Below are positions 27,696-63,948 of a DNA stretch of 64,000 nucleotides, piece after piece; position 1 is the first letter of the stretch, and every line of letters begins with the position of its first letter. The notes beneath the pieces were generated by a model. It was given only the letters and a program-made list of their open reading frames with translations, was not told the origin of the DNA and did not search any database. The stretch comes from Chrysomallon squamiferum (lineage: Eukaryota > Animalia > Mollusca). The position numbers and the translations under genes are program-made. Where the stretch lies: contig CM022665.1 in assembly GCA_012295275.1 (NCBI GenBank), positions 6,324,001 through 6,388,000 on the forward strand, in the 5' to 3' direction.

Positions 27696-28415
27696 ATGTC
27701 AGGAGATGCTCAAACAGGTAAAAAAGCAGCATCTTATAATGTTGTAAATGAGCATGTCAAAGATAACCAGGTGATAGGAATCGGCAGTGGGTCGACTGTA
27801 GTTTTTGCAGTTCAGAGAATAGCGGAACGAGTGAAATCGGAAAAGCTAAATGTAATTTGCATACCAACTTCATTTCAAGCAAAAGAACTAATTGTGAGTA
27901 ATCACCTAACATTGGGAAGTTTGGAAATACATCCACAGATAGACGTGGCTATTGATGGTGCAGATGAAGTTGATGGCGAAGTGAACTGCATCAAAGGCGG
28001 AGGAGGGTGCCTGACACAGGAGAAAATAGTTGCTTCCTGCGCAAAAGATTTTTATATTGTTGCAGATTCGAGCAAGTGTTCTACAAATCTTGGTACAATT
28101 TGGAAGAAAGGAATTCCTATCGAAGTTATACCAATGGCATATAAACCAATTCAGCATAAAATCCAGAAAGAACTTGGAGGAAAAGCTGAACTTCGCATAG
28201 CAAAGATGAAATGTGGTCCTGTTATTACAGACAATGGCAATTTTATACTTGATTGGCAATTTAAATCGGCAGGAAACTGGCAAGAAATAAATTCAAAACT
28301 TGTTAGTATTCCTGGTGTCATTGAAACTGGATTGTTTATAAACATGGCAAAAATGGCCTATTTTGGAAACTCGGATGGAAAGGTTACAGTTCAGAAAGCC
28401 CCGTGGGCTTCATAA
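27696..28415 (+). CDS. RPIA: Ribose-5-phosphate isomerase A, single coding exon; in-frame upstream ATG at 27612
   Basis: Uninterrupted ORF with [54 protein letters not shown] and [10 protein letters not shown] motifs. Confidence 0.97.
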
Positions 28416-30508: not shown

Positions 30509-31431
30509 CTATTGTTTTTTAAATATTTATCTTTGTGTCTGTTATATAGGATTATACAAAGCATTTACCTTACAGCACAACGCACAAAAACTGCATTTGC
30601 CAGGTCTGTAAAGTGAAATGAAATATGGGGTACTAAGCAACTACCATAATTAAAACGTATCAAACCTGAAATTATTTTCAGTATATAAAAATAATAGGAA
30701 TAAACATGCAGAATAGTCATATTTTGTCTGGGAGGGGTGATAAACTGTAAATTAATATATACAACTGTTATTTTATATATAATTATAAACAATAATTAAT
30801 AAATAAAAATTAAACCTCTGAATGATCTTTTACAAATTTATTCAATTCTTCACCCTGAACAGTTGTATTTACACTTACAAATATAGTATTGTTTAAATCT
30901 GTATTTTAGAGAACTGATTTGGGATTCTCAAAAATAACTAAACCTAAATCTCAAGATTAGAAATAATATATTGCAAGTAACTTCTTACACTTCTTGAGAT
31001 GGTGGTAAAGTCAGTGATGCACATGGAGTTGAAAATCTTCTTTTCTCATCAAATTTATTGCCACTACTGGTAACTGGTTTGATTTCAGCAAATGGTTCCT
31101 CTTTTATGACTTTACCACTTTCAGGAGGCGATTTCTTTATTTCACTCTTGTCCAACTGACTTTCTGCTTTTGATGAACTTTCCTTTTCAAAACTTTCTGC
31201 TTTTGATGAACTTTCCTTTTCAAAACTTCCTGCTTTTGATGAATTTTCCTTTTCAAAACTTTCTGCTTTTGATGAATTTTCCTTTTCGAAACTTTCTGCT
31301 TTTGATGAATTTTCCTTTTCCAGTTTATCGTTTGTCACAGCTTTTCTACTCTTCCTGTTTAAAGGACTTGCATCAGTTTCTAAATTATTCGCATCTGTAA
31401 TTGGCTGAGCAACGTCATCGTTGTCTGCCAT
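29959..31431 (-). CDS. Uncharacterised 175-aa protein with five 11-aa repeats and a Cys-rich C-terminus (3 coding exons)
   Basis: Exons 31431-30989 (donor GTAAGA), 30605-30569 (TTACAG acceptor, GTAAAT donor) and 30006-29959 (TTTAG acceptor, TAA stop) join in frame to end ...QEVPGKCSFCALCCKLCCSCCSVKKDFPME*. I do not recognise a homolog. Confidence 0.65.
31158..31322 (-). repeat. Coding 33-bp tandem repeat, five copies, encoding (F/L)EKE(N/S)SSKA(E/G)S
   Basis: Units of the form CTTTCTGCTTTTGATGAA(C/T)TTTCCTTTTC(A/G)AAA are directly visible on the plus strand. Confidence 0.95.
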
Positions 31432-32206: not shown

Positions 32207-35200
32207 TCAGTAACCAAACTTTTCATTTAAATGTGTTTTGCCATCTCCAGATTGACCTGAAATAAATAAAATATAGTAGAACAGTCAGGCTATAGAAATG
32301 ATTAAATTATTGATTTGCAATATCTTTAATGAATTACGATTATATTAAAATAAAATTATTTTTCATATTTTTATTCATCGTTTTTTTTTCCTAATAAACA
32401 TGAAGTAGAAAAAATGATTATATTTACAGCTAATTGTAAAACAATTCAAATGATGAATTAAAGCAATTAGAATTCTTTGAATGCCATAATATTTTAAGAA
32501 AATGTTTATTTGTTGTTTTAAGTTATATATTAATAATACCTTTTGGAGGCAACCAGACTGCGTAATCTGGATCAGATGCATCATAATCAACACTCAATTC
32601 ATCTGACTTTGACTTTTTTGTCTGAAAATAATTAAAATAGTTAAAAATTATTATTATTTCATATCTTAATGAATTAATTTGTATTCCAGTAACACACACA
32701 CAAAAAAGAAGGTTTTAATTAATAACTTTTCCCACCAAATTTTATTTCTAGAATCATTTGTTTATATTCCAGAACAATTTATTTCATTTATTTATTACTC
32801 AAGATAACCAACATATAATAACTGTCTGTAGCATTTGAAAAAAGTTATTTAAATATGTACACAGTAAAATCCATTTAAAATGACAGAACTGCTAATCCTT
32901 TTATGTTTTTTTTTGTGTTTTTTTAATTTATGTGATATTCAGTATATCTGGATATCTTCATGAAATTTGTTTGTTTATTTTAACAATATATATATAATCA
33001 ATTAGCACATAAATATATTTATTTGGTTTTTTTTTGTAAAATGACTAAATAAAATTTTGCAGGGGGGAAAAAGAATTAAAAATTAAACATATTTACTTAC
33101 AACAGATTTAGTGGTGAGATCATTAGAACTTCTTTTTGTGGGTTTTTTGCTAAGTGCAACATCCATATTGATATCTGTAATTTGAAATAAAATCATAAAA
33201 AAATTAATTATTGCAGATGTTTTAAAAATTGAGGAACGTTTTGAATCTTCTTTATTTTCTCTTTATAATTCACTTGATCTTTACCATTAAAACATTCATT
33301 CATATTCACATAACCATTCAAATTTCCAACAGTCTGAATATTTCAACAGCCAGTTATTGGCTAAGTCCACTGCAAAATAACTATTTTTATTCTTCCTTGG
33401 AAGTTAAATGAGTTTGGAATAAGAAGGAAGGAGAGGTCAGGTTGACCCATCCAGAAATGTAAGCTTAAATAAACTAGCATTTTTTCCCAGGTTAATCTAT
33501 ATATATATATATATATATACAGTGGTATCTTGACTTGCGAGTTTAATTCATTCTGTGACCTAGCTCATATCTCAGAATGCTCGTATGTCAAATCAATTTT
33601 CCCAAATGAAATTAACTGATATACCATTAATTATTTCCAGCCACCCAAAAACCACCCCAATTTTTTGTAACTTGTTTTTAAATAAGAAAAATATATGTAT
33701 AAATGACAAATATTGTGTAAAAAACAAAATAAAAAAATGTTAAGAAATAAATTGGTTTTGTAAAGTGTATAGGGTTAGGGTTTCTCCATCTTTTCATGGA
33801 CAGAGGTCCACAGCTTAGAAATTATTTTAACACCTTTGGCTGAAGTTATAGCCTTTATTGACTCCTTCTGCTTCAGTATGGTACATATTGTAAAAGTACT
33901 ATGCTTGTACTGGCTAGCCATGTTGACTACACGCACACCTCATTCATGTTTTTCTATGATTTCATGCTTTAATTCAGTGGACATCATCCGCTTCTTCTTC
34001 TCAGAACTGTCCTTTGCACTCACTTGCTTAGGATCCATGGAATTTTTGCTAAATACTGCACAAAACATGAGCACAACACAACAGATGCTTCCACAGCGAG
34101 GTAACCATGTGAAGCAAACGAGTGAGATGCAGGATGCTTGGTGGATGTTATGTTGTGTTGTTCAGTGCACCAACTAGCAGCAGCATATCTGAAGCTCACT
34201 CATAAGTCAGATTTTGGCTCGCAACTCAAAGCAAAAAATCGACCAGGCAACTGCTCATAACTTGGAACTCATAAGTTGGAACACTTGTAAGTCAAGGTAC
34301 CACTGTATAATGTATCTAGATTTTAATTAGAACTGTGCAGCTCAGATGTCCAAAGTCTATGTGCTAAAACACCAACATTTCAGTAAATATAAGACTATCA
34401 TCTACAGTATGTCACCAGTATACATGGTCACAGAATACAATCTTAGTCTTGTCATCTGCAGTCCTTCTAAATAAAACAGTTAAAAAGGGGTTTGGCAGTT
34501 GATGTCTAAATACAAAAAAGGTACAAGTTTTCGTAAGATTCTGCATTAGTTGGTAACATTCTGGATGACCAGTGACTGAAAAAAACACAAAGTGTACAAA
34601 GTCTGAAAAACTCAAAGGTTCTGCAGGATTCAGTGGAAAATCTTGGGTTTTGTGGAAGATGAAACAAAATACCTTTTGTAAGCAAATTAAAGATACTTTT
34701 AAAATGACTAATTACAGTATTTGAATGCTGCAAAAAAACTATACCCAAACAGTGGTAGTTAAAGAATGTAAAGACCATCCCAAAGATGGAAGAGAAACCC
34801 TATAGGGGCAGAGGTCTCTTTAACTGTACACTAAATAAAAATTATCTGGTTTCAGGTGAAAAAAATATAACTGTACATATTTCTGCAAAATGAATTTTAT
34901 AACTAAATTATTACACAATCTTCCAAAACTGTAGAAGTATTAGTAATGTTAAAAAAATGACTTTTACATTATCAAGCTATACCTGGAGAAGGTTGACTAG
35001 GTCCTTTTATTTTTGTCTCTGTCTGTTTTTGTGTTATCTTTTCACAGTCAGCCACTTTATCTGGAATTGATTCATGAAGTTTGTCATCTGATGTCTGTGG
35101 ATCTTTCTTTTCTTTGACTGAAGATTTTTTATCTCTCTGTTCTTCATCCTCTTCTTCCTCCTCCTCATCGTCACTGTCATCCTCCTCTGGTTTACTGTCC

Positions 35201-38774: not shown

Positions 38775-41741
38775 TTCACATACACTTTAAATAATTACAG
38801 ACCTTCTCTTTCAAAATATCCTTTGAGTGCTTTCTTTGGATCATCTATGTAAAGATGTTCATCTTTAGCCACCAGTGAAATAAGTGGATTTCCTTCTACA
38901 GGCTCTTCGGCATCTTCACCTAAATGTTCAATGCAAATCTTTATAATACAACTTAAAACAGTTTGGTAAAGAAATATAAAATAAGCATGAGCCTAAGCCT
39001 TCATTATTCATATTAATATATAAAGCTGAGGCTTAATTACCATGTAAATTATTACTATGAAAATACCACAAACAGACATCTGCAAATTTAAGAAATAGTA
39101 ATTAAAATCAACCATGTCAAAAACATATGCTTAATAACATTTTCAAAAAAAAAAATAATTATAATAAGATAAGACAAGAAGAGATGAGATGAGATGAGAT
39201 GAGATAAGATAATAAAATAAAATAAAATAATAATAATAACACTACTACTAATAATAATTGTCTGTTTGTAGAATTGTAATGTTCATACTAATGCCCCAGG
39301 AACATCCTTCACTGTCAAGGTTCTGACTCTCTAAACTTGCTCTCAACTGCTCCTCGTGAAGTTCAGCTTGTCTCAGAAATTCTACTTCTCTCTTTTGACG
39401 TTCCCTCTGTTCTTTCAGTTCTGAAACTGTCAAATTTGATTCCTCTTCCTGATCATCGTCTGGTCCCTCAAAAAATTCAATTTGATCATTTAATCTTTGC
39501 ATGCAGACATTTTCTTTCTTTTTTTTACATAAGCAGTTTCAAATGATAGTTCCTATTCAGTACATATCTGAGATCTATGATTTATCAGCATATGTACTGT
39601 ATAAATATGACCAAATTTGCTTTAGTTTTTAAAACCATTTTTAAACAAATAATGCACCAACAGAGTAGATTTGAAACATACAGAATTTAGTAGTAGTAGT
39701 TTAACAAGGAATCAGCTGATCTCACCACAGGTTATCTTTCCATGGGTGAAAAACTGAAATCACCATAAATTTCATTTCTTACTGGGCAAAGTCACTGTAC
39801 ATGATATTGTTAAAACACATTAATATATAAATGTATTATCATTCAGTGCATGTTGTTTATATATTTTAATAACTTGTAGGTGGCATGCTTTTCTTCAGAC
39901 TTTGGTGTTCCAACTTTCAGCATATAGGATGTGAATACATCCATAAATGAATGAATTATGAAAAATATTTCTTTGCAATGAATTCTGTACAAATTAGTAG
40001 GAATAAATCTGATTTTTTTTTTATTACAATTCAAGTCAATTAACTGTTCATACCAATACTGTGAAGTGATATAATTTAATCCACTTGATAGTGATGGTCT
40101 TAGAAAACCATGGTAATGATCAAAAGATGGTAAGATTTAAGACAGCATTGTGTACATAAACAGAATAGGATCAGCTGTGATTAATCTTACATCTGATCCT
40201 TAGCATCAAAAACTGCATTTATTAAAAAACTGCTCCCAGAAATGCAGTCATCATTCACATTTAAATACATACACACATACTTTGATTGCATGTATTTCAT
40301 TCATGAGAAAATATATTTAAAAATGCACTGAACGATTATCAGTTTAATAATCTGATCATATTAAACAGCACCAATACTTTCTATTTGCACATAAAATGCA
40401 TGGTGACTTTGCCCATTGTGAAATGGAATTTACTCTGATTTCACCTGTGGATTGATCACCTGAGTGAGATCACTCTACTCCATTTATGTTTATTCATTTT
40501 TTTTTTTTTTAATGGATTCAGTGTTTAAACTAATGCATTTTCTTGTTTATTTACATGTTAAAACATCTAAAATCCATGCTTTGACAAATAAATACACCAA
40601 AATTACATTAATTGCAACTAAATTAATACATATTTAGACATTTTACATTTTTCATTTTAATGCGAGTTAAAAATCAAAAATAGTTTTAAAACTTAAATAA
40701 ATTGCAAGAAATAGAATTTCTACTAATAACAAAAGTGAGTGTCATAATGGTAAATGTTTATCATGTGATAAGCAAATGTCTGTGGTCAGTCCGTATTTTA
40801 TGAAAATTCTAGAACTGTTTATTTTGAAAACAGTTTCTCAGTGAAAATAAATATGTGTGTTGTTGACATTCCTACTGATATTAAATTTGCAACAGAAGGT
40901 ATTATCAAATTAAGTATTATGTTAATCAGAAAATACAAAACCATTACGGCATTAGAAAATCACTGAATATACATTATGCAGGTTATTAAAATAGTCACTT
41001 TCTATATATGTTTAAATACTATGTTATGGCCAGAGATTGTTTAGGAGTGGGTTAGATTGAAAATCTAACAATATTTACTTGTAAAACATGAAGTCTTGTG
41101 CTTCCGCCGAATTTAACTACATGTCCCACTCTAACTCGATGGTAAATTTTAGGTTTCACTTTTATTTTGTTCACCCATGTGCCATGTGTACTGTCTAAAT
41201 CATACAAATACCACCCTTTGTTATGTTCGTCACTATGATCACCACAGTACTGTAAAACAGCATGATAGCGAGATAATGATGGATGCTCTAAAGTATAATC
41301 ACAACTTGGTAGTCGACCGAAAACGTAATATGGTTTCTTAGTTAAGTCAATATTATCGATAATTGCTCCATTTTTTAAAACTTCAAAGCTATATTTTGCA
41401 TCTGCCAATCCGCTCCATGCAGGTTCTTTATACGGAAAAACAACTTGTGGCTGTTTCAGTATTTCCGCTGGTGAAAGGTTTATTGGTTTCACGTTTGGAA
41501 TTTCTGATTGTTGTTTTGAATCATCATCGACATCGTGACTATGACCAACTCTACCACTATCTAAAGTATATTCGGGAAGCTTCTTTGTTTTATCTATAGG
41601 TTTTAATAATCCTTCAGGAACTTTGAAACTGTCTTTGTTGGCATTTTCTGTATCACAAACTGACGTAGGATTAACTGTTTCATCGCTGTTTTGACATGAA
41701 TTGTCTGAGTTCACAATTTCACAAGTCGCATCTTCCGCCAT
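32207..41741 (-). CDS. SLC4A1AP: Kanadaptin (FHA domain plus dsRBD-like region), 13 coding exons
   Basis: Exon 1 (41741-41079) encodes an FHA domain (VFGRLPSCDYTLEHPSLSRYHAVLQ, DLDSTHGTWVN, FGGSTR). Later exons give DPKKALKGYFEREG, CALEACRILD and NWEDDDFYDSDEDTFLDRTG. The C-terminus is DPDYAVWLPPKGQSGDGKTHLNEKFGY* with TGA at 32207-32209. Confidence 0.95.
33520..34305 (-). mobile_element. Tigger/pogo-family (Tc1/mariner) internally deleted DNA transposon
   Basis: Imperfect TIRs of about 23 bp (CAGTGGTATCTTGACTTGCGAGT ... ACTTGTAAGTCAAGGTACCACTG) flanked by TA. Minus-strand remnant 34038-33781 reads MDPKQVSAKDSSEKKKRMMSTELKHEIIEKHE*GVRVVNMA...TILKQKESIK, a CENP-B/psq-type HTH with an in-frame stop. 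Confidence 0.88.
37752..38338. mobile_element. Non-autonomous DNA transposon (MITE) with a 4-bp TSD, Sola-like
   Basis: Perfect 24-bp TIR GGGTCATTCCGTGTCAAATCACCC at both ends. ATAA is duplicated at 37748-37751 and 38339-38342. No ORF. Confidence 0.88.
39708..40481. mobile_element. Old MITE-like element with degenerate inverted repeats of about 90 bp
   Basis: TGATCTCAC...TGAAATCA..TAAATTTCATTTC..TGGGCAAAGTCAC at about 39717-39797 is matched in inverted form by GTGACTTTGCCCA..GAAATGGAATTTA..TGATTTCA...GTGAGATCA at about 40403-40472. Confidence 0.65.
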
Positions 41742-50485: not shown

Positions 50486-53400
50486 TCACACTGAAACAGA
50501 AAGAGAATAAGTAATAAACTAAATGTAACAAAAAGATAGTGGTCAGTTGCTGTGACATAATGGTGAGATGTTTAAATTATACTTAGTTCATTTTTGTTTG
50601 CTTTGCAGTCTAAGTACATCTGACATATTTTGCATGCTACCTCAAACATATTTGCTAAATGTTTCAACGAATACTTTGCTAATTTTGTCTTATAATTTAA
50701 GTATTAATTAGAATAAAAAACTTTTTTTTAAATAAATCAGACCCAAATAACTTACATTCTGACTTCCGTCTTTGTGCTTGCTGTTTTAATGCCTACAAAA
50801 TAAAAGGATCAGAATTCTCAGAAACAAAAATATATTGTTATATAAATGTATTGTCAGTTCAAACCATTAAAAATAAATTAATAGTTAAAATATTTATTTA
50901 AATTTATATATATATAATTAATATGAGATAAATTATAAAAACAAATTCTGTGTGCTTATCTTCATTTTGTACTGTGAGAACTAATTCATGTTAATTCTAG
51001 CAATTAATCTTTCTTTCTACTTTCTACTAGTATAATGCAAATTTTAAGATAAAAAAGTATTAAACTATTGTTTAAATGAACAAACCTTTTTTATGTCTGT
51101 CCAGTCTTCAATAATATCAATTTCCTTCAGCATATAAATTATATATGGTCGTACAAAAAAATTAAGGAAAATTACTTGTATTTCAATAAGTTTCAGTTTT
51201 TGTAAAACTATCTACACAGCTATTGAGTCACATTTATTTTTCAAATCTTAACTAAATGCATATGTTAAAAAAAAAAGTATTGTAACTATACAAAAATGTT
51301 TGTGGATAATATTACTTTCTGGTATCTGATCTCAGATTTATATTCTAGTGACTACAATTTCAGTTAACAATCTTAACATCAAGGGTCTAATTAAATTATG
51401 GTTAGAATCATGTTTGTATTCAAACAGTATGTTGAAATACACATACAGTTGAAATGTTAGTGCACTGCAAATATTCAAAAATGTATATTTGTATTATGAT
51501 ATTTCTGTGCATACACTAAAGACTAAACTAAATAATACACAGAACTTCCACAGCTATGTTGTAAAAGTAAAAAGGATATCTGTCACTGTGACTGGTTTTC
51601 GCCTTCGGTCTGTACTAAATGGATCAGTACTTTTCTTCCTCTTCTTTTGTGTCTGAGATTCATTCCAGAGATCTATATAAAAATAAAATAAAACAAAAAT
51701 TCAGAAATATTAATTAAAATCTTTTCAGAAATCAGTTTTCTTTGATAAATATATAGTTTTAATACATTATAAAAATTGTATCCAACCTGAAGATATGTCA
51801 ATGTTATGTCTATCTTCTTCCAGCCTGCGTATTTTTTCTTCAAGTTCTTGTTTCACACTGTCATACAATAAAAGCTTTTCACTCTGAAAATAAAGCATAT
51901 TATTAGTGTGTGTGTGTGTGTGTTTAGTGATAACTAACATTAATTTGAAATTCAATTTGTTTATGTTTTTGGTAGAAAACTACAGGTACATTTTGTTCTT
52001 TTCAAAACTGTTCAAAAGAGAAATAAAGGTTTTAAATATGAACAAAGTGCAATATGATATTTTAAATAATTCTTTTAACTTTTGTTTCAAGTAATTAATT
52101 AAATTTATTTGCAGTAATCAATGATATAAAATTACATTTTCTGCCACATATAAAGTGTAAATAAGAGCACATATAGTACCTCCATGTGCTGTAAGGAACC
52201 CAGTTTTTCACTTTCAAACCTGTTCTTGATGCAAGCTATTCTCAGATCTTTCAGAATGCCTGAAAAGAAAAGAATGAATCAACCAAATATTTTTCAATGA
52301 TTTAAATTTTACAAATAGGTGAATGTTGGAAAATGAAAAACAAAATTCACATTTACTAGTAAAATGATTATAAAAAATAAAATTAAAAAATACATATTTT
52401 TGTGTGTGTGTGTATAATGTACATGTACATGTACTTGTATATAATAAATAATAAATGCTAAATATGTTATTAAACCTGAAACTTCTGTTCTTATCCTCAT
52501 GTTTTCTTGTAGTTGTGCAAGTGGATTTAAATACTCAGCAGCTTTCCCAGCAATCACTTCTTTCAGTTTTGCTTCCATCTGACACATACGCTCAGTGTAC
52601 AGACTATAAACAATAAAAATTGCATTTCAATAACAATAAATATAAAACCAGTATGTTTTCAATTTATTGTTCAATGTGAATTATCTACATTTTTAATAAT
52701 AATTCTAAACTACATTTTATATACATTTATGGTTCAATACCATTCAATGACTGTATGTTAAGAGTAAAATATTACATTACGTCCTGAAACAAAACAGTCT
52801 ACTGTGTCATTTATAAAATATTAATGACTGAATCCTTACTGTTCCTTGAGTTCACTGAACTGCCTTTCCAATTCATACATGTCTTCCAGACATTCCGTTT
52901 TCCGGTTCTGGCATTCTTCTTCATCAATTTCTGAAATAACAATTTATAATATCCACAATATAACAATAATAATAAACACCATAGAACACAAAATGTGTTC
53001 ACCTGAAAAAAGAAAGAATGAAAAAACAGAGGTTTTCTTACAGAAATTGAAAGACAATGAAAAGAAAATGGCTTTTTTTTTTTATTAGTAGCAATTAATC
53101 TTTTATACGCACCATACTACAGGTTTCTGTCATCAGATATGGAATAAAGGATAGAATGATGCAATGGAATACTGCCTGGAATGAGAACCTGTCAATAGGC
53201 CACTAATGGGGTTTGTAACTAAGCAAATCAGATAAATGTTTTATCAGAACTACACCATGTCCCTTGGACTTTTGCCAAAAAGGGTTTAAGCTAGGCTAGT
53301 AAAGTAGGGAGAAGGGACTTTTCCCTATAGATGCAAGAGGTTTTGTGAAAGAGAAATGAGACAATACAACATAACTAAGCTGTTGTCATAAACATAAAAT

Positions 53401-54727
53401 TAAACATCTACATGTATGCATCAATATTCTGTTTCTAATAAATAGTACCTTTAGCAAAATATTTTAAACAGACTCAAACCATAAGATTATATAATAAGTT
53501 TTATTTTTAAATTTGTTTCTGATTACTTGCAGCCTGCTTCCTTCAGATGTGGAACCCTAGTTGAGTAGATTTGTAAATTGTAATCTTTCCTGTACATGTA
53601 CTTATGTTTATTCAATCAGCTGGTCACATGATCTCCTTCCATATCTCTATTAAATTTGTTCACAGACACAAAGTCTGCATCATTTAATGAATGGCATATG
53701 GAGAAGATTTGTGTTGTTTGTCATTAAACAAGTCAAATGAGGCTCCCAGAGTAAAAAAAGAATACATTTTAATGATCTTTACACAGTTTCTTTGTGGATG
53801 AAAGCAATGAAACTGGAAAGGTCTGCAGCATTATTTAGGTTTGTGATTTATTTATTCAGTCCTTTTGGTTTATAAACCAATATGTAACAGACGTAGAATA
53901 TAAACAAACTAATTTTGTTTTTCCCCCTACGATGTATTAATCTGTGATTTTCTTGTTGGGGGTGGTTATATTTGATTTTATTTTCAAATGGATAGTTTGC
54001 TGTGAACCACTTTTACATTTCTATAGCTATATGGTCATAAGTTTTGGTATGCATGTGCAATTGTATCATGTTTCAACATTTTACTGTTTACATTTATCAA
54101 TGCATGAAACGATTCTCATAATAGCAGACGAATTTTCATCATTATCTGCTGTTGAAAGTGCCGTGAAAGAGGGTGTTTCATACTGAAAAATTGTGAAACT
54201 GTCAATATTATTGTGGAACAGTAGGATTTGTAGTCTCATACAGGTAGTCCCGATGACACATTTCAGAAAAAGAATGAAATACAATTGATGGAGACAAGCT
54301 ACAGAGTAACATAATGCTGCTACTGACAGCTGCACCAGTAATTGTCGTAAAATAGCTTGATGGTAAAATGTCACAACTGCTCATATATAATATATATAAA
54401 GGCTTTAACTTCTGTCTTTAAGACTTAAGGCAGTGAGCTATCATTCATCTTATTAGAGTTGCGTCCCTTAATATAAACTACATTCAGTGCATAATTCGAA
54501 ATATTAAATAAAGATAATTTTATTTTTAAAAGATATTTATATAACAACTATGATACATAACCTTTAAAAATTAAATACAAACCTGAAGAAGATTCTGCGT
54601 CATCTTCAGAAGATGCCGTACCAGTTTCATCGTCAGAACTTTTGTCGCTGTCTGGAGTCTCATGCTCCATATCCTCTTCTTCCGTTAATTCATTTTCTGG
54701 CATGGTTGTTATCTTTTCGTTCGACAT
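50486..54727 (-). CDS. BRMS1: BRMS1/BRMS1L-family Sin3-HDAC subunit, 9 coding exons
   Basis: Acidic N-terminus, [77 protein letters not shown]...IEDWTDIKK, ending RRKSEL* with TGA at 50486-50488. An alternative start ATG lies at 54703. Confidence 0.92.
51151..51579 (-). other. U12-type AT-AC intron in BRMS1
   Basis: 5' end ATATCCTTT, branch TTTCCTTAAT (51170-51161), 3' end TAC. Removal restores the conserved ...VTG|PYI... frame. Confidence 0.95.
53085..53262 (-). mobile_element. Degenerate tRNA-derived SINE fragment
   Basis: ATTAGTAGCAA..TCTTTTATACGCACCAT...GGAATACTGCCTGGAATGAGAA...AATAGGCCACTAATGGGG resembles the same SINE family as 13770-13990. Based on recollection, not a search. Confidence 0.45.
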
Positions 54728-55269
54728 TGGCAAATACGTTAAATAATTACCAAGTCAGGGAGAAAAAATATAAATAAAATAAAAAAGAAGCAGCGGCATT
54801 TGTTGTCAACACATCTAGGCAGTGTCTGAGCATGCGTCAAGGGAATACCCGGGAATTCCACTTCCATCTGGTTAAAAACATTATTGGTCTCAAACAACAT
54901 TTAGTTTTCGTTAGAATGTCTGTTCAATTGTCAGACGGAAGAAGCTTGATAAAAACGTCTGTATTAAGAGCTGTGTTACCAAGACAATACCAGTATATTT
55001 TTATTTTATTATTATTTGTCTAATTATTACTATTATTTAAAAAATAATAAATAAATAAATAATAAATTAACAAACAATATGTATATGTTTTGAGGGGTGA
55101 GGTAGATTATAGTTTTTAACCAATAATTGAAGTAGTTAATTATATTAAAAGTTTTAATTGAATAGCTGCATTTATATAAAGTTTATTTATCAGTTTTCCT
55201 TTATTATTATTATTTTTTAATTATTATTATTATTTCCACCGCCCTGATTAAAGCTAGACCCTCAAATCA

Positions 55270-55375
55270 GATGTAGATATCTTTCTGGGGCGTCCTTGCT
55301 ATCTCTTCCACCAGATAACGATTTAATTGTGTTTTAGGGATGCTTACATTTGACTTAATACATGCCCGATACACT
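55270..55375 (-). mobile_element. Highly decayed RTE-like LINE ORF C-terminal fragment
   Basis: The minus strand gives IGHVL and, after a frame change, KR*QGRPRK, resembling the W.GHVLR...GKR.RGRP motif at the end of RTE ORFs. Confidence 0.4.
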
Positions 55376-55388
55376 CCAGGTTTTTATT

Positions 55389-55423
<35 letters not shown>

Positions 55424-55965
55424 GTGGTATAGTGTTCATTTCATCTTGTTTTTATTTTCTTTATGTTCCTTTTTTTTTTTTTTAGTATTATAAATGACGA
55501 AAATATTTTAGGTAGCTGCACAGTGAGCGAGAGGAGGCATACCTTTCTTAAATGACAAACCAAACACACCTCTGACTCTCATAAACTACCAGCTATAACT
55601 GATCAATAACTGACATAAAGTTTGCGACTGTGCATCGAAGAGTTGAAAAAATAGCCCACATCAGAAGTCAGTACGATCATGATGTTATAATGTATCTGAA
55701 TTTTACCATTTATATTTACGGTATTTTCTTTTATTTCTATCATTAATTGTATCATGGATTATCCTGAAATTTGGAATCAGTTCACTGAGAGAAACTGTGT
55801 TATCTTTGCGGATCACAGATTTAGAAGCTTACTGAAGATACATAACAAAATCGTAATTATCATCATTACACGACGGTTAATCAAATTTTAGCAAAACCCA
55901 TTTAGTTGGCGGTCTGGATCACATGATTAAATACTGCCATTTGATTGGATGTTTATAACTGTATC

Positions 55966-56153
55966 CTTGGCCATCTTAACTGCATTATAAGGCTTCTACA
56001 TACACAATAACATACAGAATTATCAAAAAAAAAAAAAAAAAAAAAAAAGTGTATTAATACACCAATCCATAGCGTTAATGGATTGCTCGGGCTCCTAGAC
56101 TAATGTGACCGGGAGGCAACTGCCCAGTGTGCCCATACCTTACGACGGCTCTG
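55966..56153. mobile_element. Short hAT-like MITE remnant
   Basis: Degenerate TIRs CTTGGCCATCTTAAC ... CTTACGACGGCTCTG, a GC-rich subterminal GGCAACTGCCCAGTGTGCCCAT, and a partly matching 8-bp flank ACTGTATC/GTTATATC. Confidence 0.5.
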
Positions 56154-56529
56154 GTTATATCTACATACAATTATTAGCTACGAGTTATATTTTAATCACA
56201 TGCAAAGAACTTGATATGCTGAAAATATGATTATAGTTATCTTGTTCTTTTATTTAAGGGAAATATGAGAATTTAATGAACTTCGTTCACAGCATCGACC
56301 AAAATTACAGGAATTTTAGGAACATAAAACTGCCATTATTTCGATTTTTTTTTTTTTTTTTTTTTTTTTAAAGTTTATTGGTAGTTTTATTTTATTCACC
56401 CCCTTGCTTTTTTTCAGTGATGCAGAAATAATTTTAATTTGGCGCCTTTTGTTGTTGTTTATTAGCTTTTTTATTTTTTCCTCCATTATTATTTTATTGA
56501 TTTTCTTTTCTTTTCCTTTTCTTTTCTTT

Positions 56530-56569
<40 letters not shown>

Positions 56570-56678
56570 CATGGTGTTAAAAATAAGGATGGTCTTATTT
56601 GTATGTGACGCTCAAATATAAATATCGGAAATCTTCTGTCGAGGAAGATAATAAACAGTAATTAACTAGAGCTTTGCA

Positions 56679-57111
56679 ATGGAAAATACACGTGAGACAA
56701 GTGATTTGGATGAAATTATAAGACTTAAAAACGAATTGGCGTCCAAAGATGATGAAATCAGAAAATTAAAGAAACAGCTGGTATATAATAAGTTAATAAT
56801 ACGAAATATATGTGCTTTTGTTGGCTGTCAGTTGCATCCGATGCTTCTTATTGTTGCTTTTGTTTATCGATGTCACGTGGTTTGACCTTGATTATTACAA
56901 ATATTTAAGACGATAGAAATATCATATGAAAAAAACAAGTCAAACTGATTCAGGAAATTTACACACACGCTTTGTTAAAGTACCAATTATGAAGTGTATT
57001 TATTTATTGTTATTACTGTATTATTATTATTGTTATTATTATTATTAAATATATAATTTTTAAATTTTTATTGGGGGCTTTTTTTGTTTTGTTTTTTCAA
57101 ATTATTTTTTT

Positions 57112-57158
<47 letters not shown>

Positions 57159-58206
57159 TTATTTTGTTGTTTAAACGCTAAAGGGAGCAATGGGAACTTC
57201 CATTTCTTAAAAAAAATTATTATTATTATTATTATTATTATTATCAGCAAATATAAGTTAATACATAAATCTTCAAAATTATCAGTCAAGACAAATGTAA
57301 TAAATTATATTATCCTATTAACAAAAAAAAATATTCAATATCAGACAGTAAACTAAATGAGAAGTTATTTTATTTACTATCATATTTTTAAGTATTGTAA
57401 ATATTAACATAATGTCTTTTTTATATTGCAAATTTAGGAAAGTAAGTTAAATGATCCTTTCGTATCGGAAGTTTTACCAGAACAAGCTACAGAAGATGTC
57501 ATTCATTCTGCATTTCTCAACAATGAAGATATTGCCAGATATAGCAGACAGCTAATTCTACCAGAAATTGGAGTCAAAGGTGAAAAAAACACCAAGTTAA
57601 TTAATCAGTCAATCAGTCAACTGTTTTTAATATACTTATGTCCACTGAAGGACAAAGCATATTTGTCTAGGCTTTACAGCCTAGGATCATCTGTTGACTA
57701 ATAGTGTGTTAGAGTAGTATTTTAACATGTTCGAGAAGTGAACATGTGTTGTTGTCGTACCTGAAGAATATTGAATCATATAATTACTGGTCTTCTTTTC
57801 TGTGGAAAAACAAAATTAAATTAAAAAAATAATTGATTAAAGTAAAGCTGCTTTTTACAGATGATATCTAACACTTTTTTTTTCTCTTCTGTTTTATATG
57901 CCCTCAACTTTGCTCTAGATTTGTTATGTTAAAAAAAAACAACAACAAAAAAACACATTAAAAATAAATTAACAAAAAACCCCACTCAGAACATCCTGGT
58001 ACAGTTACTGCATCCATTACTTAAATATAATGGTTTTGATATGCTTTATTTTTTGTATTTAGGACAACTGAAGCTGAAATCAAGCAGTGTTCTGATAGTT
58101 GGAGCTGGAGGACTTGGATGTCCTGCTGCTATTTATCTCACAGCTGCTGGAACTGGTGAGAATATACATAATAAATTAAAATATATTTTATATCTTAATT
58201 ACTTTT

Positions 58207-58250
<44 letters not shown>

Positions 58251-61200
58251 CACACACTCACATAAAATTCTTTTTTTTAAAAATTTCTGCCAGAGGAGAA
58301 GTCGATAAGTTTTATGTTTATGACTTGTAATAATATGTAAATAATCCTGCAAATGTTTTTAATTCTCTGTGACAAGAATTTTGCTGTATCTTGATAATCA
58401 GTAAAAACTCCACATAAATAACTGGTTTTAGTCAATAAATATTTAAAAGACAGATATATAATAAGAATAACTGACCAGTATTTATATCCAGGAAGACTTG
58501 GTATAGTTGATTTTGATGAGGTAGAGATCAACAATCTCCACAGGCAGGTTCTGCACACAGAAGACAGAGTTGGTGTGTCCAAGGTGATCTCAGCAACACA
58601 GACATGTAAAAGGTATAAATAAAAGAAAATGAGATGGAACCATTATTCTGCGACGGACGCGCCCGCTGACCTGTGAAAGAAAGCATGCCCGTCGCAGACG
58701 TGCTTCACAACAGCTTGCTCTGATTAGCACGTTAATTTTTTTCCTATTCCTATTCCTATGGAACCATTAGTTGAAAGTGCTGTTTTATTTAACGAAATGT
58801 AATGCTTCTTTGGAATATTTTGATACCTGATGTACCAATAATAATTCAATTCTGAATAATTATGTAAATGAATTTCAATTTCTAATTTTATTTCCTTTTT
58901 TTCATTTGTTTTTTTTCTATTTGTTTTTTTGTTTTTATCTGTTTGGTGGTGGGTGGAGTTCGCTACAATTGAAATAGAGCACAATGTTTTTCGCTGACAT
59001 CATATAACTACTATATCAGATGAAAAAGAGTGAAAAATAGCTAACTAGTCAGCCTTTGAAGAGCTTGGATGATTGACATAATATAGAAAACTGTTTCTCT
59101 AACAAGTGGTTATTATTTTTTTACATTTTCTAAATTATTTTAATCCCAAACACATTCAAGAAGACTTTTTTTTTTCACTGAATATGCTGATAATTTTCTA
59201 AATCTTTTACATTGGAAGTTCCATTCAGTTTGTGTGTCTCAGCTAGATAATTATTCTTCTTCTACAGTTGAAAGACATTTGTCCACCATCTGTATCTTGT
59301 GGACACATTTCTTTCTATAAAATTATAAACATTGACATGGATGTATTAACAACTAGCAAATTCAAAAGGGTGCCAGATTTTTGTATATTCATTTTGTCTT
59401 TTCAGATTAAACTCCTCTGTGACATTTGTACCATACAGGCTGCAGCTGAACAGTCAGAATGCTCTACAGATCATCAAAGAGTATCTTTCAAAAAGTTATG
59501 GTTAAATTTCTTTGGTTACATTTTATCCCTGCTGATAGCTAGTATGTTTTACTGTAATCCATCCTTTCAGCTACATTCCTTAAGACCAGCTATGATATTG
59601 TTCTGGATGCTACTGATAATGTAGCCACAAGATACCTGCTCAATGATGCCTGTGTTCTGGCAAAGAAACCTCTTGTCTCTGGCAGTGCTTTACGATTTGA
59701 AGGACAGGTAAAACATAATCAAATGAGTAGAAATTGTGTATAATTACATTTCAAACATTTTAATGTTAACATTAGTCAGGTGTCTACTTATAACATTTGT
59801 GTTATTTTATATTTTCTAAAAAGTATTTAGAAGTACAAATCAATTATTTCCATTCCATGGATTAGAAATGAATAGCAAATAACATTTTTTATTTATATAT
59901 ATACCTGTTCAAAAAGAAAAAAGTTACATAACATCTAATAAACATTTGTTTTATTTGTTTATGAAAACTACTTAAAAAAACAAGAAAAAAAAATCATTAT
60001 GCGATACACCAAATTTATTTAGTCTGTGTTCATAAGATATAATTTAATTTCAGAGTTGTCCTTCTTACATCAGTTCAACCCAGATATATAGTAATATAGA
60101 AAATAATTTATGCAACATTCATTTAAACAATCAGATCACATTAAGATGTTCGTTTAATTGTGAAGTTGTTTAGCAAAGGAAAACATTAAATGAGCATCTG
60201 AACATTATTACAACATTTACAACATTTACAAGTTAAGTTTTGGTGTTCTGTATTTATTTGTAATTGTTTCATTTATTTTATTTTTTGAAGCTGACTGTGT
60301 ACAACTACAGAGGTGGACCTTGTTACAGATGTCTTTATCCAAAACCACCTCCACCAGAAACAGTAACAAATTGTTCTGATGGTGGTGTCCTAGGTGTTGG
60401 TATGTTGCTTTAATTTTAATTTTTTTAACTGAAAGAAATGTTATGAAAGTATCCAAATTCATACATTGTTACGTTTGTTATTTTATCGTTACATTTTATT
60501 CCTAGGCGGAAAAAAATGGTTACTAGACAAAATGCATACTGACTATATATTGTACCAGAAATTAATATTCTGGAATATAATTTTAGCACTTCATTTAGTT
60601 AAAATATAGCAATAGGTTTTTAAATTTTAATTATATTCTTTCCAAATTGTCTGGAAAAGATCTAACAGTCAGAGCTTATTTATGTCTTGAGCTAAACCAT
60701 TTATTACAGTAAGTATTCAAGTTGAAGACTAGACAGAAAAGGACTGTGAGTTATATGAGTGTTTTGTTTTCAGTTCCTGGAATTATTGGATGCCTTGAAG
60801 CACTGGAAGCTATCAAAATTTTGATAGACATTGGCAGTATCCTTTAATATTTGCTCAACCTTTTAGAGTAATTTTCAGATTTTTCAGATTTTAATCTGTT
60901 CTTTTAAGATTTCTATATTATGTCAGTAGAAGGTAGAGAAATCTTTATTATTACCCCCAAAAAGGATAGAAAAGAATGAAAATTAATTAATTAAATAATG
61001 AACAAATCATAGGTTTTACATTTGTCCATTATCATTAAGTAAAGTAATTTCTTTTAATTGTTACATCATTATGAAATTTCTATCTCTTTAACAATTAAGC
61101 CAGTTATTTTCAGCGTCTGTTACTGTTTGATGGCCTAGATTTGACTTTTAGGACGATAAGATTACGTCCACGTCAGCCATCATGTGTGGTTTGTGGAGAA

Positions 61201-62418
61201 ACTCCATCTATCACAGAGCTTATTGACTATGAGCAGTTCTGTGGAGCAAGAGCTACAGATAAAGTAAATAATCTTTACAAAATATTTAATGTGTGAAACC
61301 AGACTAAATATTTTTATAATAAAAATATAATTGGTTATGAAACAACTCCTCAATTTTGATTTTACCTGTAATTTTGTTTTTAATTTGAATAATTGTTAAG
61401 TTTTGGGAGTTTTTTCACGGTTTTTTCTTACTTGTACAGGATCATTGCAAGAATATTTTAACTGCTGATGAAAGATTATCAGCAAAGGTAAGACATACTT
61501 CCTTCTTTGAGATCTAATCTTTTCCAAACAGTGATTAAGATGAATTGGATAAAATTCTTTATAGTTTCTACTCTCAAAAAGTTATTAATTTTTCAGTATT
61601 CCATAATATACAATTTGTTTCATTCACTTTACTCATTTGTTTTATTTAAATTTCATTTTGTGAAATGTTTTTCTTGGTTACTGCCGTTAAGACATGAGGT
61701 TACTTTTTTCAAATTATTTGTTCTTTTTGTAGGATTACAGAGAAATGTTGAACAGAAGTGTCCCTCATTTGCTCATTGATGTGCGCCAGCCTGTGGAAAT
61801 GGAGATATGTCAACTTCCACACAAAACTATTATTAGTATCCTTTGTGTAGTGTTGATAGCTATTTAAAAAAATAAAAATAATAATAATGTTCAATTCAAC
61901 GTAACTCAGGTAATTGTTTAACAAATATTTTTTTAACTGTTAATGAAAATTGTTTTTATTGAACTTGATATATTAATAATTTATTTAAAAATGTTAAAAT
62001 CCACTAAAAACTTTTCTTAAAGTTATCTATTGTCTGCTGGTTCATGAATTCATTTGATATGCAAAAACAAAAAAGAACGGTCAAAACCAATGAAAAACTG
62101 TATGAATAAAAACTATTTAAATTTCTCTACTTTCCAAAATGTATATAGCAAATAAAGCTTTACAATTTTCCTTAAATAATTTTAGACATTCCAATAGATG
62201 TAATAGGTAAAGAAGAAAGTATCAAAAAGATTGGAGAAGTAGTGAAATCTCATAATGTAAAAGAGGTTGTACTAGTGTGTCGTCGTGGAAATGATTCTCA
62301 GATTGCAGTGAGAACTCTTCAGGAGAAATTAAAAGATTTCAGTATTGTTCTGAAGGACATTTCTGGTGGTTTGACTGCTTGGACCAAACAAGTGGACCCT
62401 AAGTTTCCAGTGTACTGA
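56679..62418 (+). CDS. MOCS3: Adenylyltransferase/sulfurtransferase MOCS3 (UBA4), 12 coding exons
   Basis: Exons 56679-56780, 57438-57579, 58063-58156, 58492-58612, 59406-59480, 59590-59707, 60291-60399, 60774-60836, 61100-61263, 61440-61487, 61733-61835, 62186-62418. Motifs [50 protein letters not shown], rhodanese VCRRGNDSQ and DPKFPVY*. Confidence 0.96.
58646..58757 (+). mobile_element. 112-bp 5'-truncated retroposon (SINE/LINE 3' end) with a 12-bp TSD
   Basis: Perfect direct repeat ATGGAACCATTA at 58634-58645 and 58758-58769, a GC-rich body, and a T-run plus (TTCCTA)n tail. Confidence 0.8.
59481..59589 (+). other. Probable U12-type GT-AG intron in MOCS3
   Basis: 5' GTATCTTT (variant of GTATCCTT). 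TTCCTTAAG lies immediately before ACCAG with no polypyrimidine tract. Removal restores IIKD|[10 protein letters not shown]. Confidence 0.7.
60837..61099 (+). other. U12-type GT-AG intron in MOCS3
   Basis: 5' GTATCCTTT, branch TCTTTAAC at 61085-61092, 3' AATTAAG. Removal restores [14 protein letters not shown]. Confidence 0.9.
61836..62185 (+). other. U12-type GT-AG intron in MOCS3
   Basis: 5' GTATCCTTT, branch TTTCCTTAA at about 62167-62175, 3' TTTAG. Removal restores KTIINIP. Confidence 0.92.
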
Positions 62419-62841
62419 ATTTTTTACAGTGGAATTACAAATGTAGCTTTTTAATAAATTTATATTCTGAATCTGTAGCCAGCTCTTTTTTGTTACTACC
62501 AAGGACTTTTGACCACTCCCAAAATGTCACAAAAATACATAATTATTATTACTGTGTTTTTTTAAATAAAAATAAAGAAAACTGCAATTTGCAAAACATT
62601 TATTTATAAATATTTATAACCAAATATTTTTCTTTACATCAGCTAGGCATCATATTCAAAAAAAAAAAAAAAAAAATTATTTTAAACATTAATAAAGGAA
62701 AATAATATAACCAGAAGATCATTAATAACGTATAATCAAAAGTAGTTAGAATGAATTCTGTAAATAGTCATAATACTCTACGATATTCATCACACATTTT
62801 ATTTTAGTTTTAAACTATTACCAAACATTTGAATGCAATAT

Positions 62842-63948
62842 TTATACATACGTAATTTCTTTGTAGCTTTTCTTTTCTATTTTCTTCGGTTTGTATGTCC
62901 TCTTCCTCCTTTAAAACAGCAAAGAAAAATGAATGTGACATACATATTTAACTGAGCAAAAAAAACCCCAGATTTACAAAATAAGATTTTAAAAAGAATG
63001 AGAAATGCATAGAAAATTCAAAAGAAACTGATGAACTTCAGTATTTTCACAGAGGGATTGCTAAGCAATTCCCATAAAAAAAATGTAATAGTTTTATCTT
63101 AATTTTTATTAATACATTAATAACTTACTTGGCCCTGACTCTGGGTTCAATGATATTTCTCTTCTGGAGACTTTTAAATCTATCTTCCAAAAGATGACCT
63201 TCGGGCTGCAATAAAGAGAAACAAATTGGATTTGTTTTATTACATAGCATGTATCCTATTTCTTTTTCCACCATTTAAAATAAAAAATAATTTAAAAAAG
63301 TTCAAATTCATCTAACAAGAAGATACATACAATGTTTCCTCAATGTTTTTAAATTCAACTTTTTACAAAATTTACAAAGCACTATCTTAGAATAAAGAAT
63401 GAAAATAAGTGAGTCAAAATATTTAAATATGTTACCTTCAGCAATCTGAGTGAACCTACAAGTTCATCTGTGAGCTTCAACTCCAACTCTGGTTCCTCAA
63501 ATCTGTTCTAGTTAAGGATAACATTTGTGACAGAATGGCATTCCATGAATGCCAGTTTAAATGGAATAAGAACTAATCGTGTTTTGAGCTTTAGAGAACA
63601 AAATACTGAATGCTAATATTAAAAATATGATACTGATGTAAAAATTGACCTCTGAATCAATGATTGGATTATCTATCAGACAATATGTGTAATTGTGAAA
63701 CTTATAAATTGTGATTTGGATTAGTTTACCCGTACTCTTCATGTATAAAGAAAAAAAAGGCAAAATCTAATATGCACAAACTGTTTCCATTTTTTAAAAC
63801 TGAAGTTGGATAACAAAATTAAGGATACTTGTGTTTTCCAAGTCTTTTAGGCTGTAATTTGCTTTTTTCTTTAATTTCTTCTTTTTTCATCAGCCTCTGT
63901 TGGTATTCTCTTGTTTTCTTTTCTATTTCTTTCTTCAGTGATTTAACC
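62842..63948 (-). CDS. NOP53: Ribosome biogenesis protein NOP53 (GLTSCR2/PICT1), last 4 coding exons; gene continues beyond the window
   Basis: Exons 63948-63829, 63502-63436, 63205-63129, 62908-62842 give [77 protein letters not shown]. Confidence 0.92.
63503..63828 (-). other. U12-type GT-AG intron in NOP53
   Basis: 5' GTATCCTTA, canonical branch TATCCTTAAC (63520-63511) followed by TAGAACAG. Removal restores GKHK|FEEP. Confidence 0.93.

Follow-up and report, generated by a model that had tools for sequence, protein, structure and literature searches.

Animal introns of the U12 type begin with the donor consensus RTATCCTT, and U4atac/U6atac together with U5 carry out their excision. Here we describe five such introns in three adjacent genes, BRMS1, MOCS3 and NOP53, of the mollusc Chrysomallon squamiferum, all of which lie in a window of 64,000 nucleotides (nt), the window being the whole stretch of DNA that was analysed (contig CM022665.1 of assembly GCA_012295275.1, positions 6,324,001 to 6,388,000 of the forward strand). 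We consider it probable that these are minor-spliceosome introns, presumably ancestral, in three old genes; that the genes are adjacent is likely incidental, a result of reshuffling among the genes of an old linkage group.

The donor and the branch box of such introns are recognised by U11/U12 and excision follows by the minor spliceosome, the optimal distance of the branch A being 11-13 nt from the 3' end (PMC3584512). Described animal U12-type introns share with those of the snail the donor (examples of extended donors are given in PMC7367187 Table 1), the branch box near the 3' end, the GT-AG and AT-AC subtypes, the lack of phase 0 and the occurrence of several introns per gene (PMC3584512, PMC7367187), the latter clustering within genes being a general property (PMC7367187 section 15). 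There is no difference in kind; MOCS3 intron 5 of the snail has a short branch distance, and the snail introns are known from sequence and RNA joins. Minor introns are comparatively frequent in molluscs (PMC10639083 section 24), with published counts of 347/118,729 introns in Lottia, 275/160,569 in oyster and 503/224,736 in the non-mollusc Lingula (0.17-0.29%), and Lottia encodes all four minor small nuclear RNAs, U11, U12, U4atac and U6atac (PMC11347168 Table S7). Minor introns are furthermore biased to old, intron-dense genes.

That BRMS1 and, outside mammals, MOCS3 contain minor introns has been published before. Human BRMS1 and BRMS1L as well as zebrafish brms1la and mocs3 are listed as such (PMC11347168 Table S6), and the human and zebrafish BRMS1/BRMS1L genes (Tables S6 and S8 of the same study) belong to the same family as the snail gene and likewise have one minor intron, a likeness at the level of the gene. 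The zebrafish mocs3 minor intron (chr17:42,829,244-42,829,344, 101 nt) is retained in both rnpc3 datasets of that study, whose table gives responsive introns only; the snail gene has three minor introns, whereas human MOCS3, located on chr20 and listed as an orphan retrogene (PMC3548309 Table 1), has no introns at all. MOCS3 with three minor introns is the unusual part of the locus and a rare configuration: comparable human and mouse genes are described as 'a few cases' (PMC3584512), and PMC6717393 counts 50 genes with two minor introns, followed by a class of 3 genes. In addition, genes with multiple U12 introns are commonest among ion-channel genes and U12 introns are almost absent from biosynthetic genes (PMC3584512), whereas MOCS3 is a biosynthetic enzyme. 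Our literature search pairing MOCS3 with minor-intron or U12-type terms found nothing, the intron databases MIDB, IAOD and the Larue figshare tables, which may list these introns, lying outside that search. In the minor-intron lists of the PMC11347168 supplement that were searched, neither the name NOP53/GLTSCR2 nor the Ensembl identifier that we take to be its own occurs.

Signals and junctions of the five introns

The three genes and their U12-type introns are located as follows.

50486..54727, minus strand: BRMS1/BRMS1L coding region, 9 exons and 8 introns, one of them U12-type; open frame
51579-51151, minus strand: U12-type AT-AC intron, BRMS1 intron 6 of 8; 429 nt, phase 1, ATATCCTTT...TCCTTAAT...AC, branch box 51161-51168
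56679..62418, plus strand: MOCS3/UBA4 coding region, 12 exons, 456 amino acids, 11 introns, three of them U12-type; open frame
59481..59589, plus strand: U12-type GT-AG intron, MOCS3 intron 5; 109 nt, phase 2, GTATCTTTC/TCCTTAAG, branch box 59577-59584
60837..61099, plus strand: U12-type GT-AG intron, MOCS3 intron 8; 263 nt, phase 1, GTATCCTTT/TCTTTAAC, branch box 61085-61092
61836..62185, plus strand: U12-type GT-AG intron, MOCS3 intron 11 (last coding intron); 350 nt, phase 1, GTATCCTTT/TCCTTAAA, branch box 62169-62176
62839..63948, minus strand: 3' part of NOP53, last four coding exons; the gene leaves the window and is tail-to-tail with MOCS3
63828-63503, minus strand: U12-type GT-AG intron of NOP53; 326 nt, phase 2, GTATCCTTA/TCCTTAAC, branch box 63511-63518

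Our intron set comprised 54 modelled coding introns, i.e. these five and 49 others, with the orphan gene of the window modelled through exon 1 only, and the introns were scored by mismatch counts to the consensus donor and to a TCCTTRAY-like branch box rather than by a published position weight matrix or intronIC. A U12 donor combined with a 3'-proximal branch box occurs in 5/54 introns only. The donor is exact in four of the five and carries one mismatch in the fifth, and none of the 49 other introns comes within one mismatch of RTATCCTT, the next-best donor having two mismatches and no branch box. All five branch boxes show 0-1 mismatches, and the second A of the box lies 12 nt (BRMS1), 7, 9 and 11 nt (MOCS3 introns 5, 8 and 11) and 10 nt (NOP53) from the 3' end. 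The weakest signals are those of MOCS3 intron 5, which has GTATCTTT and the short branch distance. Since ATCYTT follows GT at 8 of the 6614 GT dinucleotides of the window, 19 of 861 intron-interior 12-position windows fall within one mismatch of the branch box and the control introns are negative, a coincidence of motifs can be excluded. The remaining RTATCCT matches off the modelled donors (of coding introns) are found at 38816, 55961 and 63251 on the plus and at 2687, 13807, 17692 and 26322 on the minus strand.

Four of the introns are of the GT-AG and one of the AT-AC subtype. Their phases are 1, 2, 1, 1 and 2, so that phase 0 occurs in 0/5 as compared to 25/48 controls (Fisher p=0.053), a bias that is on its own consistent with the U12 type but weak. 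As to the polypyrimidine tract, which in U12-type introns is not distinct, pyrimidines near the 3' end number 7-10/13 in the five introns versus 5-12/13 in the controls, a measure that is blurred by the AT-rich genome. The first-pass annotation, which had proposed the five introns with a branch site about 8-12 nt from the 3' end (measured, 7-12 nt in all five) and with phases 1 or 2 throughout, thus proved correct in these respects, as it did for the U12-type call, the gene names, the orientations and the restoration of the reading frame. The same applies to its statement that the neighbouring genes are free of the signature, which is missing from all 32 modelled introns of the four other intron-containing genes; on the strand of the orphan, no RTATCYT was found between 28.4 and 31.5 kb. 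Taken together, the signals make it likely that the minor spliceosome takes out all five introns.

For the junctions in MOCS3 and NOP53, RNA evidence came from the contigs of four runs of one study, which cover MOCS3 introns 5-11 and the NOP53 stretch and in which 10/10 modelled introns, including MOCS3 introns 5-11, are joined as modelled. The joins 59480>59590 (MOCS3 intron 5), 60836>61100 (intron 8), 61835>62186 (intron 11) and 63502>63829 (NOP53) were seen in 3/4, 4/4, 4/4 and 2/4 runs, respectively. Four of the proposed junctions are hence exact at the level of RNA, and that of BRMS1 is set by homology. One unspliced contig spans MOCS3 intron 5 and another contig reads into the U12-type intron of NOP53. 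Among the 32 contig pieces listed, besides which there are 23 more, unspliced sequence occurs at U12 introns in at least two and at U2 introns in at least five records, and one record has U12-type MOCS3 intron 8 removed with U2-type intron 7 still present. A preferential retention of U12 introns is not supported by these contigs, which cannot quantify retention. The notion of the first-pass annotation that minor splicing is often rate-limiting is itself disputed (PMC7367187 section 15), and here unspliced pieces occur at U2 introns too.

In BRMS1, the AT-AC junction is fixed by homology. The spliced model is identical to BRMS1L of Gigantopelta aegis (P0001) at 228/245 and to that of Haliotis at 172/245 positions, in keeping with a gastropod host close to Gigantopelta, its homologs carry Pfam PF08598, and a KPxxxx-GP motif is read through at the junction site in 136/141 of them (132 scored directly, plus four Haliotis proteins that were caught at an earlier KP yet have the motif). 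Of the remaining homologs, four are without the region and one is a transcript variant diverging at the site. The two GT-AG alternatives that would also keep the frame were discarded, as either would cost 11-13 conserved residues including the motif. Intron 8 of the gene has an ordinary GTAAGT donor. In the diverging variant (P0005), which stems from another animal, the point of departure coincides with the residue at the minor-intron junction and a stop follows 8 residues on, which suggests alternative processing at the BRMS1 minor intron. At the other end of the snail gene (50490-50755, minus strand), the last coding exon is tiny and yields the ending of isoform X2 of Gigantopelta, and the tail could be longer if a second acceptor, located 28 nt upstream, were used.

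We take the middle gene to be MOCS3 on the basis of its E1-like and rhodanese motifs and of the name given in the first-pass annotation; its intron 11 precedes the rhodanese active-site loop. NOP53 was identified by a match to human NOP53 in PDB (E 1e-7) and by homologs named NOP53. Here, a conserved stretch of 32 amino acids matched 99 proteins, the names being taken from 20 of the 99, and a search with a 40-amino-acid coiled-coil stretch gave no match. Recurring loose ends of RNA contigs were noticed in this gene at 63279, inside a NOP53 intron, in 2/4 runs and at 62852, the latter with letters matching the sequence near 62640; this end may represent a 3' splice or an alternative end of NOP53.

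Retention of any of the five introns would lead to a stop within 3-10 codons, so that their removal is predicted to be needed for the respective protein and all three genes would depend on minor-spliceosome activity. The dependence is predicted to be strongest for MOCS3 with its three sites. If intron 11 of this gene were retained, the product would be a truncated enzyme, and the transcript may escape junction-dependent decay as no modelled intron lies downstream. Such dependence would act in trans, as for several hundred other minor-intron genes, and, because the minor spliceosome acts in trans, it would not need the genes to be adjacent. On this reading, fish kept at least one MOCS3 minor intron, and human lost all MOCS3 introns by retrogene replacement.

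From our point of view, the most reusable point is the MOCS3 gene with three minor introns, which adds a rare configuration in a biosynthetic pathway; with these three introns and an intronless human counterpart, it could serve as a handy test case for a limiting role of minor splicing in the tRNA thiolation of non-mammalian animals. The locus further provides mollusc minor introns that are supported by RNA at four of five junctions and are useful for annotation, and it adds a NOP53 minor intron missing from the human lists that were searched.

Origin of the adjacency

With regard to age, the BRMS1 intron is probably old, as judged from the minor introns in the human and zebrafish tables and from a corresponding intron in another animal. 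The latter came from a comparison of 13 animal BRMS1 loci on metagenome contigs, six of which span the junction site. In one of them (L011, 3161-3413), the same codon is interrupted by an intron with ATATCCTTG as donor, TTCCTTAAT as branch box and AT-AA ends, AT-AA being the most frequent of the non-canonical minor types (PMC10639083 section 30). In the other 5/6 spanning loci the intron is missing, and one locus without it, L010, is a second BRMS1 gene under the assembly prefix of L011. Neither MOCS3 nor NOP53 was found in any of the 13 loci, most of them short; in L010, a tetraspanin-like gene (weak Pfam matches) is found upstream of BRMS1 instead.

In human and zebrafish, the genes of the trio lie apart. 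In human, BRMS1 is located on chr11, BRMS1L on chr14 and MOCS3 on chr20. In zebrafish, brms1la (chr17:12.8 Mb) and mocs3 (chr17:42.8 Mb) share a chromosome at a distance of 30 Mb. For BRMS1 and NOP53, seven species with records of both could be compared (from the 20 of 99 NOP53 matches whose records were consulted), an equal length of the carrying sequence being taken as the same sequence. The two genes are on different sequences in 4/7, namely Owenia, Lingula (XP_013407838 and XP_013408584, on different scaffolds), Physella and Acipenser, and on the same sequence in Ridgeia (P0038/P0178, on a 1.33-Mb scaffold), Pecten (P0042/P0147) and Tubulanus (P0027/P0221). The tags of the Ridgeia genes, 16g05040 and 16g10004, suggest the same region and non-neighbouring positions. 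The sharing of sequences by BRMS1 and NOP53 and of chr17 by the zebrafish genes hints at one old linkage group, and the overall picture suggests old chromosomal linkage with local reshuffling, though it may also fit a looser relic neighbourhood.

The run of three consecutive minor-intron genes that the first-pass annotation pointed out does exist; its significance depends on the chance model, and our models use assumed gene counts and clustering. A naive binomial calculation for 5/53 introns at 0.29% gives 5e-7. This is misleading because three of the introns share MOCS3, so that the five are not five independent events, and because the window was selected. Runs of at least three minor-intron genes are expected 0.06-0.4 times per genome if the genes are placed uniformly and 0.3-1.3 times if old genes occur in runs; under these models, one such run is to be expected across a scan of many genomes. 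For comparison, 119 zebrafish minor-intron genes, taken from 121 of 258 table rows, were paired at several distances, and 3 pairs within 50 kb were found as compared to 0.52 expected under a uniform per-base model that ignores gene density. Such close pairs are thus nothing unusual outside the snail, although the excess could reflect gene density or a real tendency.

The layout of the trio was likewise described correctly, BRMS1 being head-to-head with MOCS3 and the latter tail-to-tail with NOP53. The divergent arrangement is not special in the window, in which DRC7/RPIA and NAA30/COA6 are also divergent. Between the two start codons lies the following spacer, in which no CpG island and no structured repeat was found.

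54728..56678, no strand: BRMS1-MOCS3 start-codon spacer, head-to-head, 1951 nt, 29% GC, with poly-T/poly-A tracts

The first-pass annotation had suggested that this arrangement may be a co-regulated minor-splicing neighbourhood linking chromatin repression, tRNA thiolation/molybdenum cofactor synthesis and 60S biogenesis. In such a case, the genes would stay side by side because common transcription and a local supply of the minor spliceosome tune the three processes jointly. The three consecutive genes with their head-to-head and tail-to-tail order, the same-sequence pairs in three of seven species, the common zebrafish chromosome and the mild close-pair excess in zebrafish could be taken in its favour. 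However, neither human nor zebrafish has the trio together, BRMS1 and NOP53 are separated in four of seven species and would not be adjacent in Ridgeia, other head-to-head pairs of the window do without minor introns, the zebrafish null ignores gene density, and at the level of titles no paper on neighbouring or positionally clustered minor-intron genes surfaced. With the split trio, the action in trans, the chance models and the common head-to-head layout, nothing speaks positively for such a neighbourhood, and we regard it as very unlikely. Should conservation and co-regulation nevertheless hold, this would be, as far as our literature search goes, the first indication of minor-intron genes arranged by position and would bear on the neutral-versus-regulatory debate over minor-intron persistence. 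One could even speculate that BRMS1-MOCS3-NOP53 represents what is left of an ancient lophotrochozoan minor-intron block, preserved so that minor-spliceosome activity controls Sin3-HDAC repression, tRNA thiolation and 60S assembly at once, with the triple-U12 MOCS3 as the most sensitive switch, from which mammals escaped via retrogene replacement; we give this extension equally little credence. Just as improbable is a true count of four or fewer, which would follow if at least one GT-AG intron, with MOCS3 intron 5 as the likeliest candidate, were of a hybrid or converting type and left to the major spliceosome. The branch A of intron 5, 7-8 nt from the 3' end and thus short of the published optimum (PMC3584512), its GTATCTTT and the TCTTTAAC of intron 8 would fit such a conversion, and RNA junctions are silent on which spliceosome acted. 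Against it stand the donor and branch box, each within one mismatch and 7-12 nt from the end in 5/5 introns and in 0/48 controls, and the 109-nt length of intron 5, which is near that of the rnpc3-responsive mocs3 intron of zebrafish (101 nt), a likeness of size only. Slightly less probable still is a lineage-wide high density or recent gain of minor introns, of which the window would be a sample. In its favour, 5/54 introns (9%) far exceed the 0.17-0.29% of oyster, Lingula and Lottia, and the NOP53 intron is without counterpart in the human lists searched; yet the neighbouring genes have none in 32 introns, BRMS1 and MOCS3 have vertebrate counterparts at gene level, and the window was chosen for this feature.

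We therefore prefer minor introns of probable ancestral origin in old genes that came to lie together incidentally. Several points weigh against this explanation. In addition to the three species with BRMS1 and NOP53 on one sequence, there is the limited extent of the 13 BRMS1 loci, the majority being short or breaking off close to the gene and several being near-identical copies. A uniform model with Lottia-like counts yields a run of three in only ~5-8% of genomes, and the higher expected numbers depend on the assumed clustering of old genes. Moreover, the zebrafish mocs3 intron is a counterpart of the snail sites at the level of the gene only, and for the MOCS3 and NOP53 introns we infer an age that is probably ancestral as well.

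The gene block of the window

The trio is part of a block of nine genes across 51 kb, comprising eight recognisable conserved genes and one orphan.

Gene order: DRC7 (minus), RPIA (plus, intronless), orphan (minus), SLC4A1AP (minus), NAA30 (minus), COA6 (plus), BRMS1 (minus), MOCS3 (plus), NOP53 3' end (minus)

Head-to-head pairs are common in this block, with three among nine genes (DRC7/RPIA, NAA30/COA6 and BRMS1/MOCS3). RPIA (E 3e-64), the FHA domain of SLC4A1AP and COA6 were matched in Pfam; the names DRC7, NAA30 and, as stated above, MOCS3 are assumed from the first-pass annotation and from motifs. An Rfam scan of the window matched no family.

The RPIA open reading frame (27696-28412, plus strand) is a single coding exon and divergent from DRC7 at ~1.1 kb. 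An intronless RPIA amid an intron-rich block may be due to replacement by a retrocopy. The first exon of the orphan (30988-31431, minus strand) encodes about five copies of an 11-residue repeat without a Pfam match. Lastly, intron 10 of SLC4A1AP contains a broken stretch (33760-34300, minus strand), the translation of which presumably resembles a fragment of a Tigger/CENP-B-type transposase.

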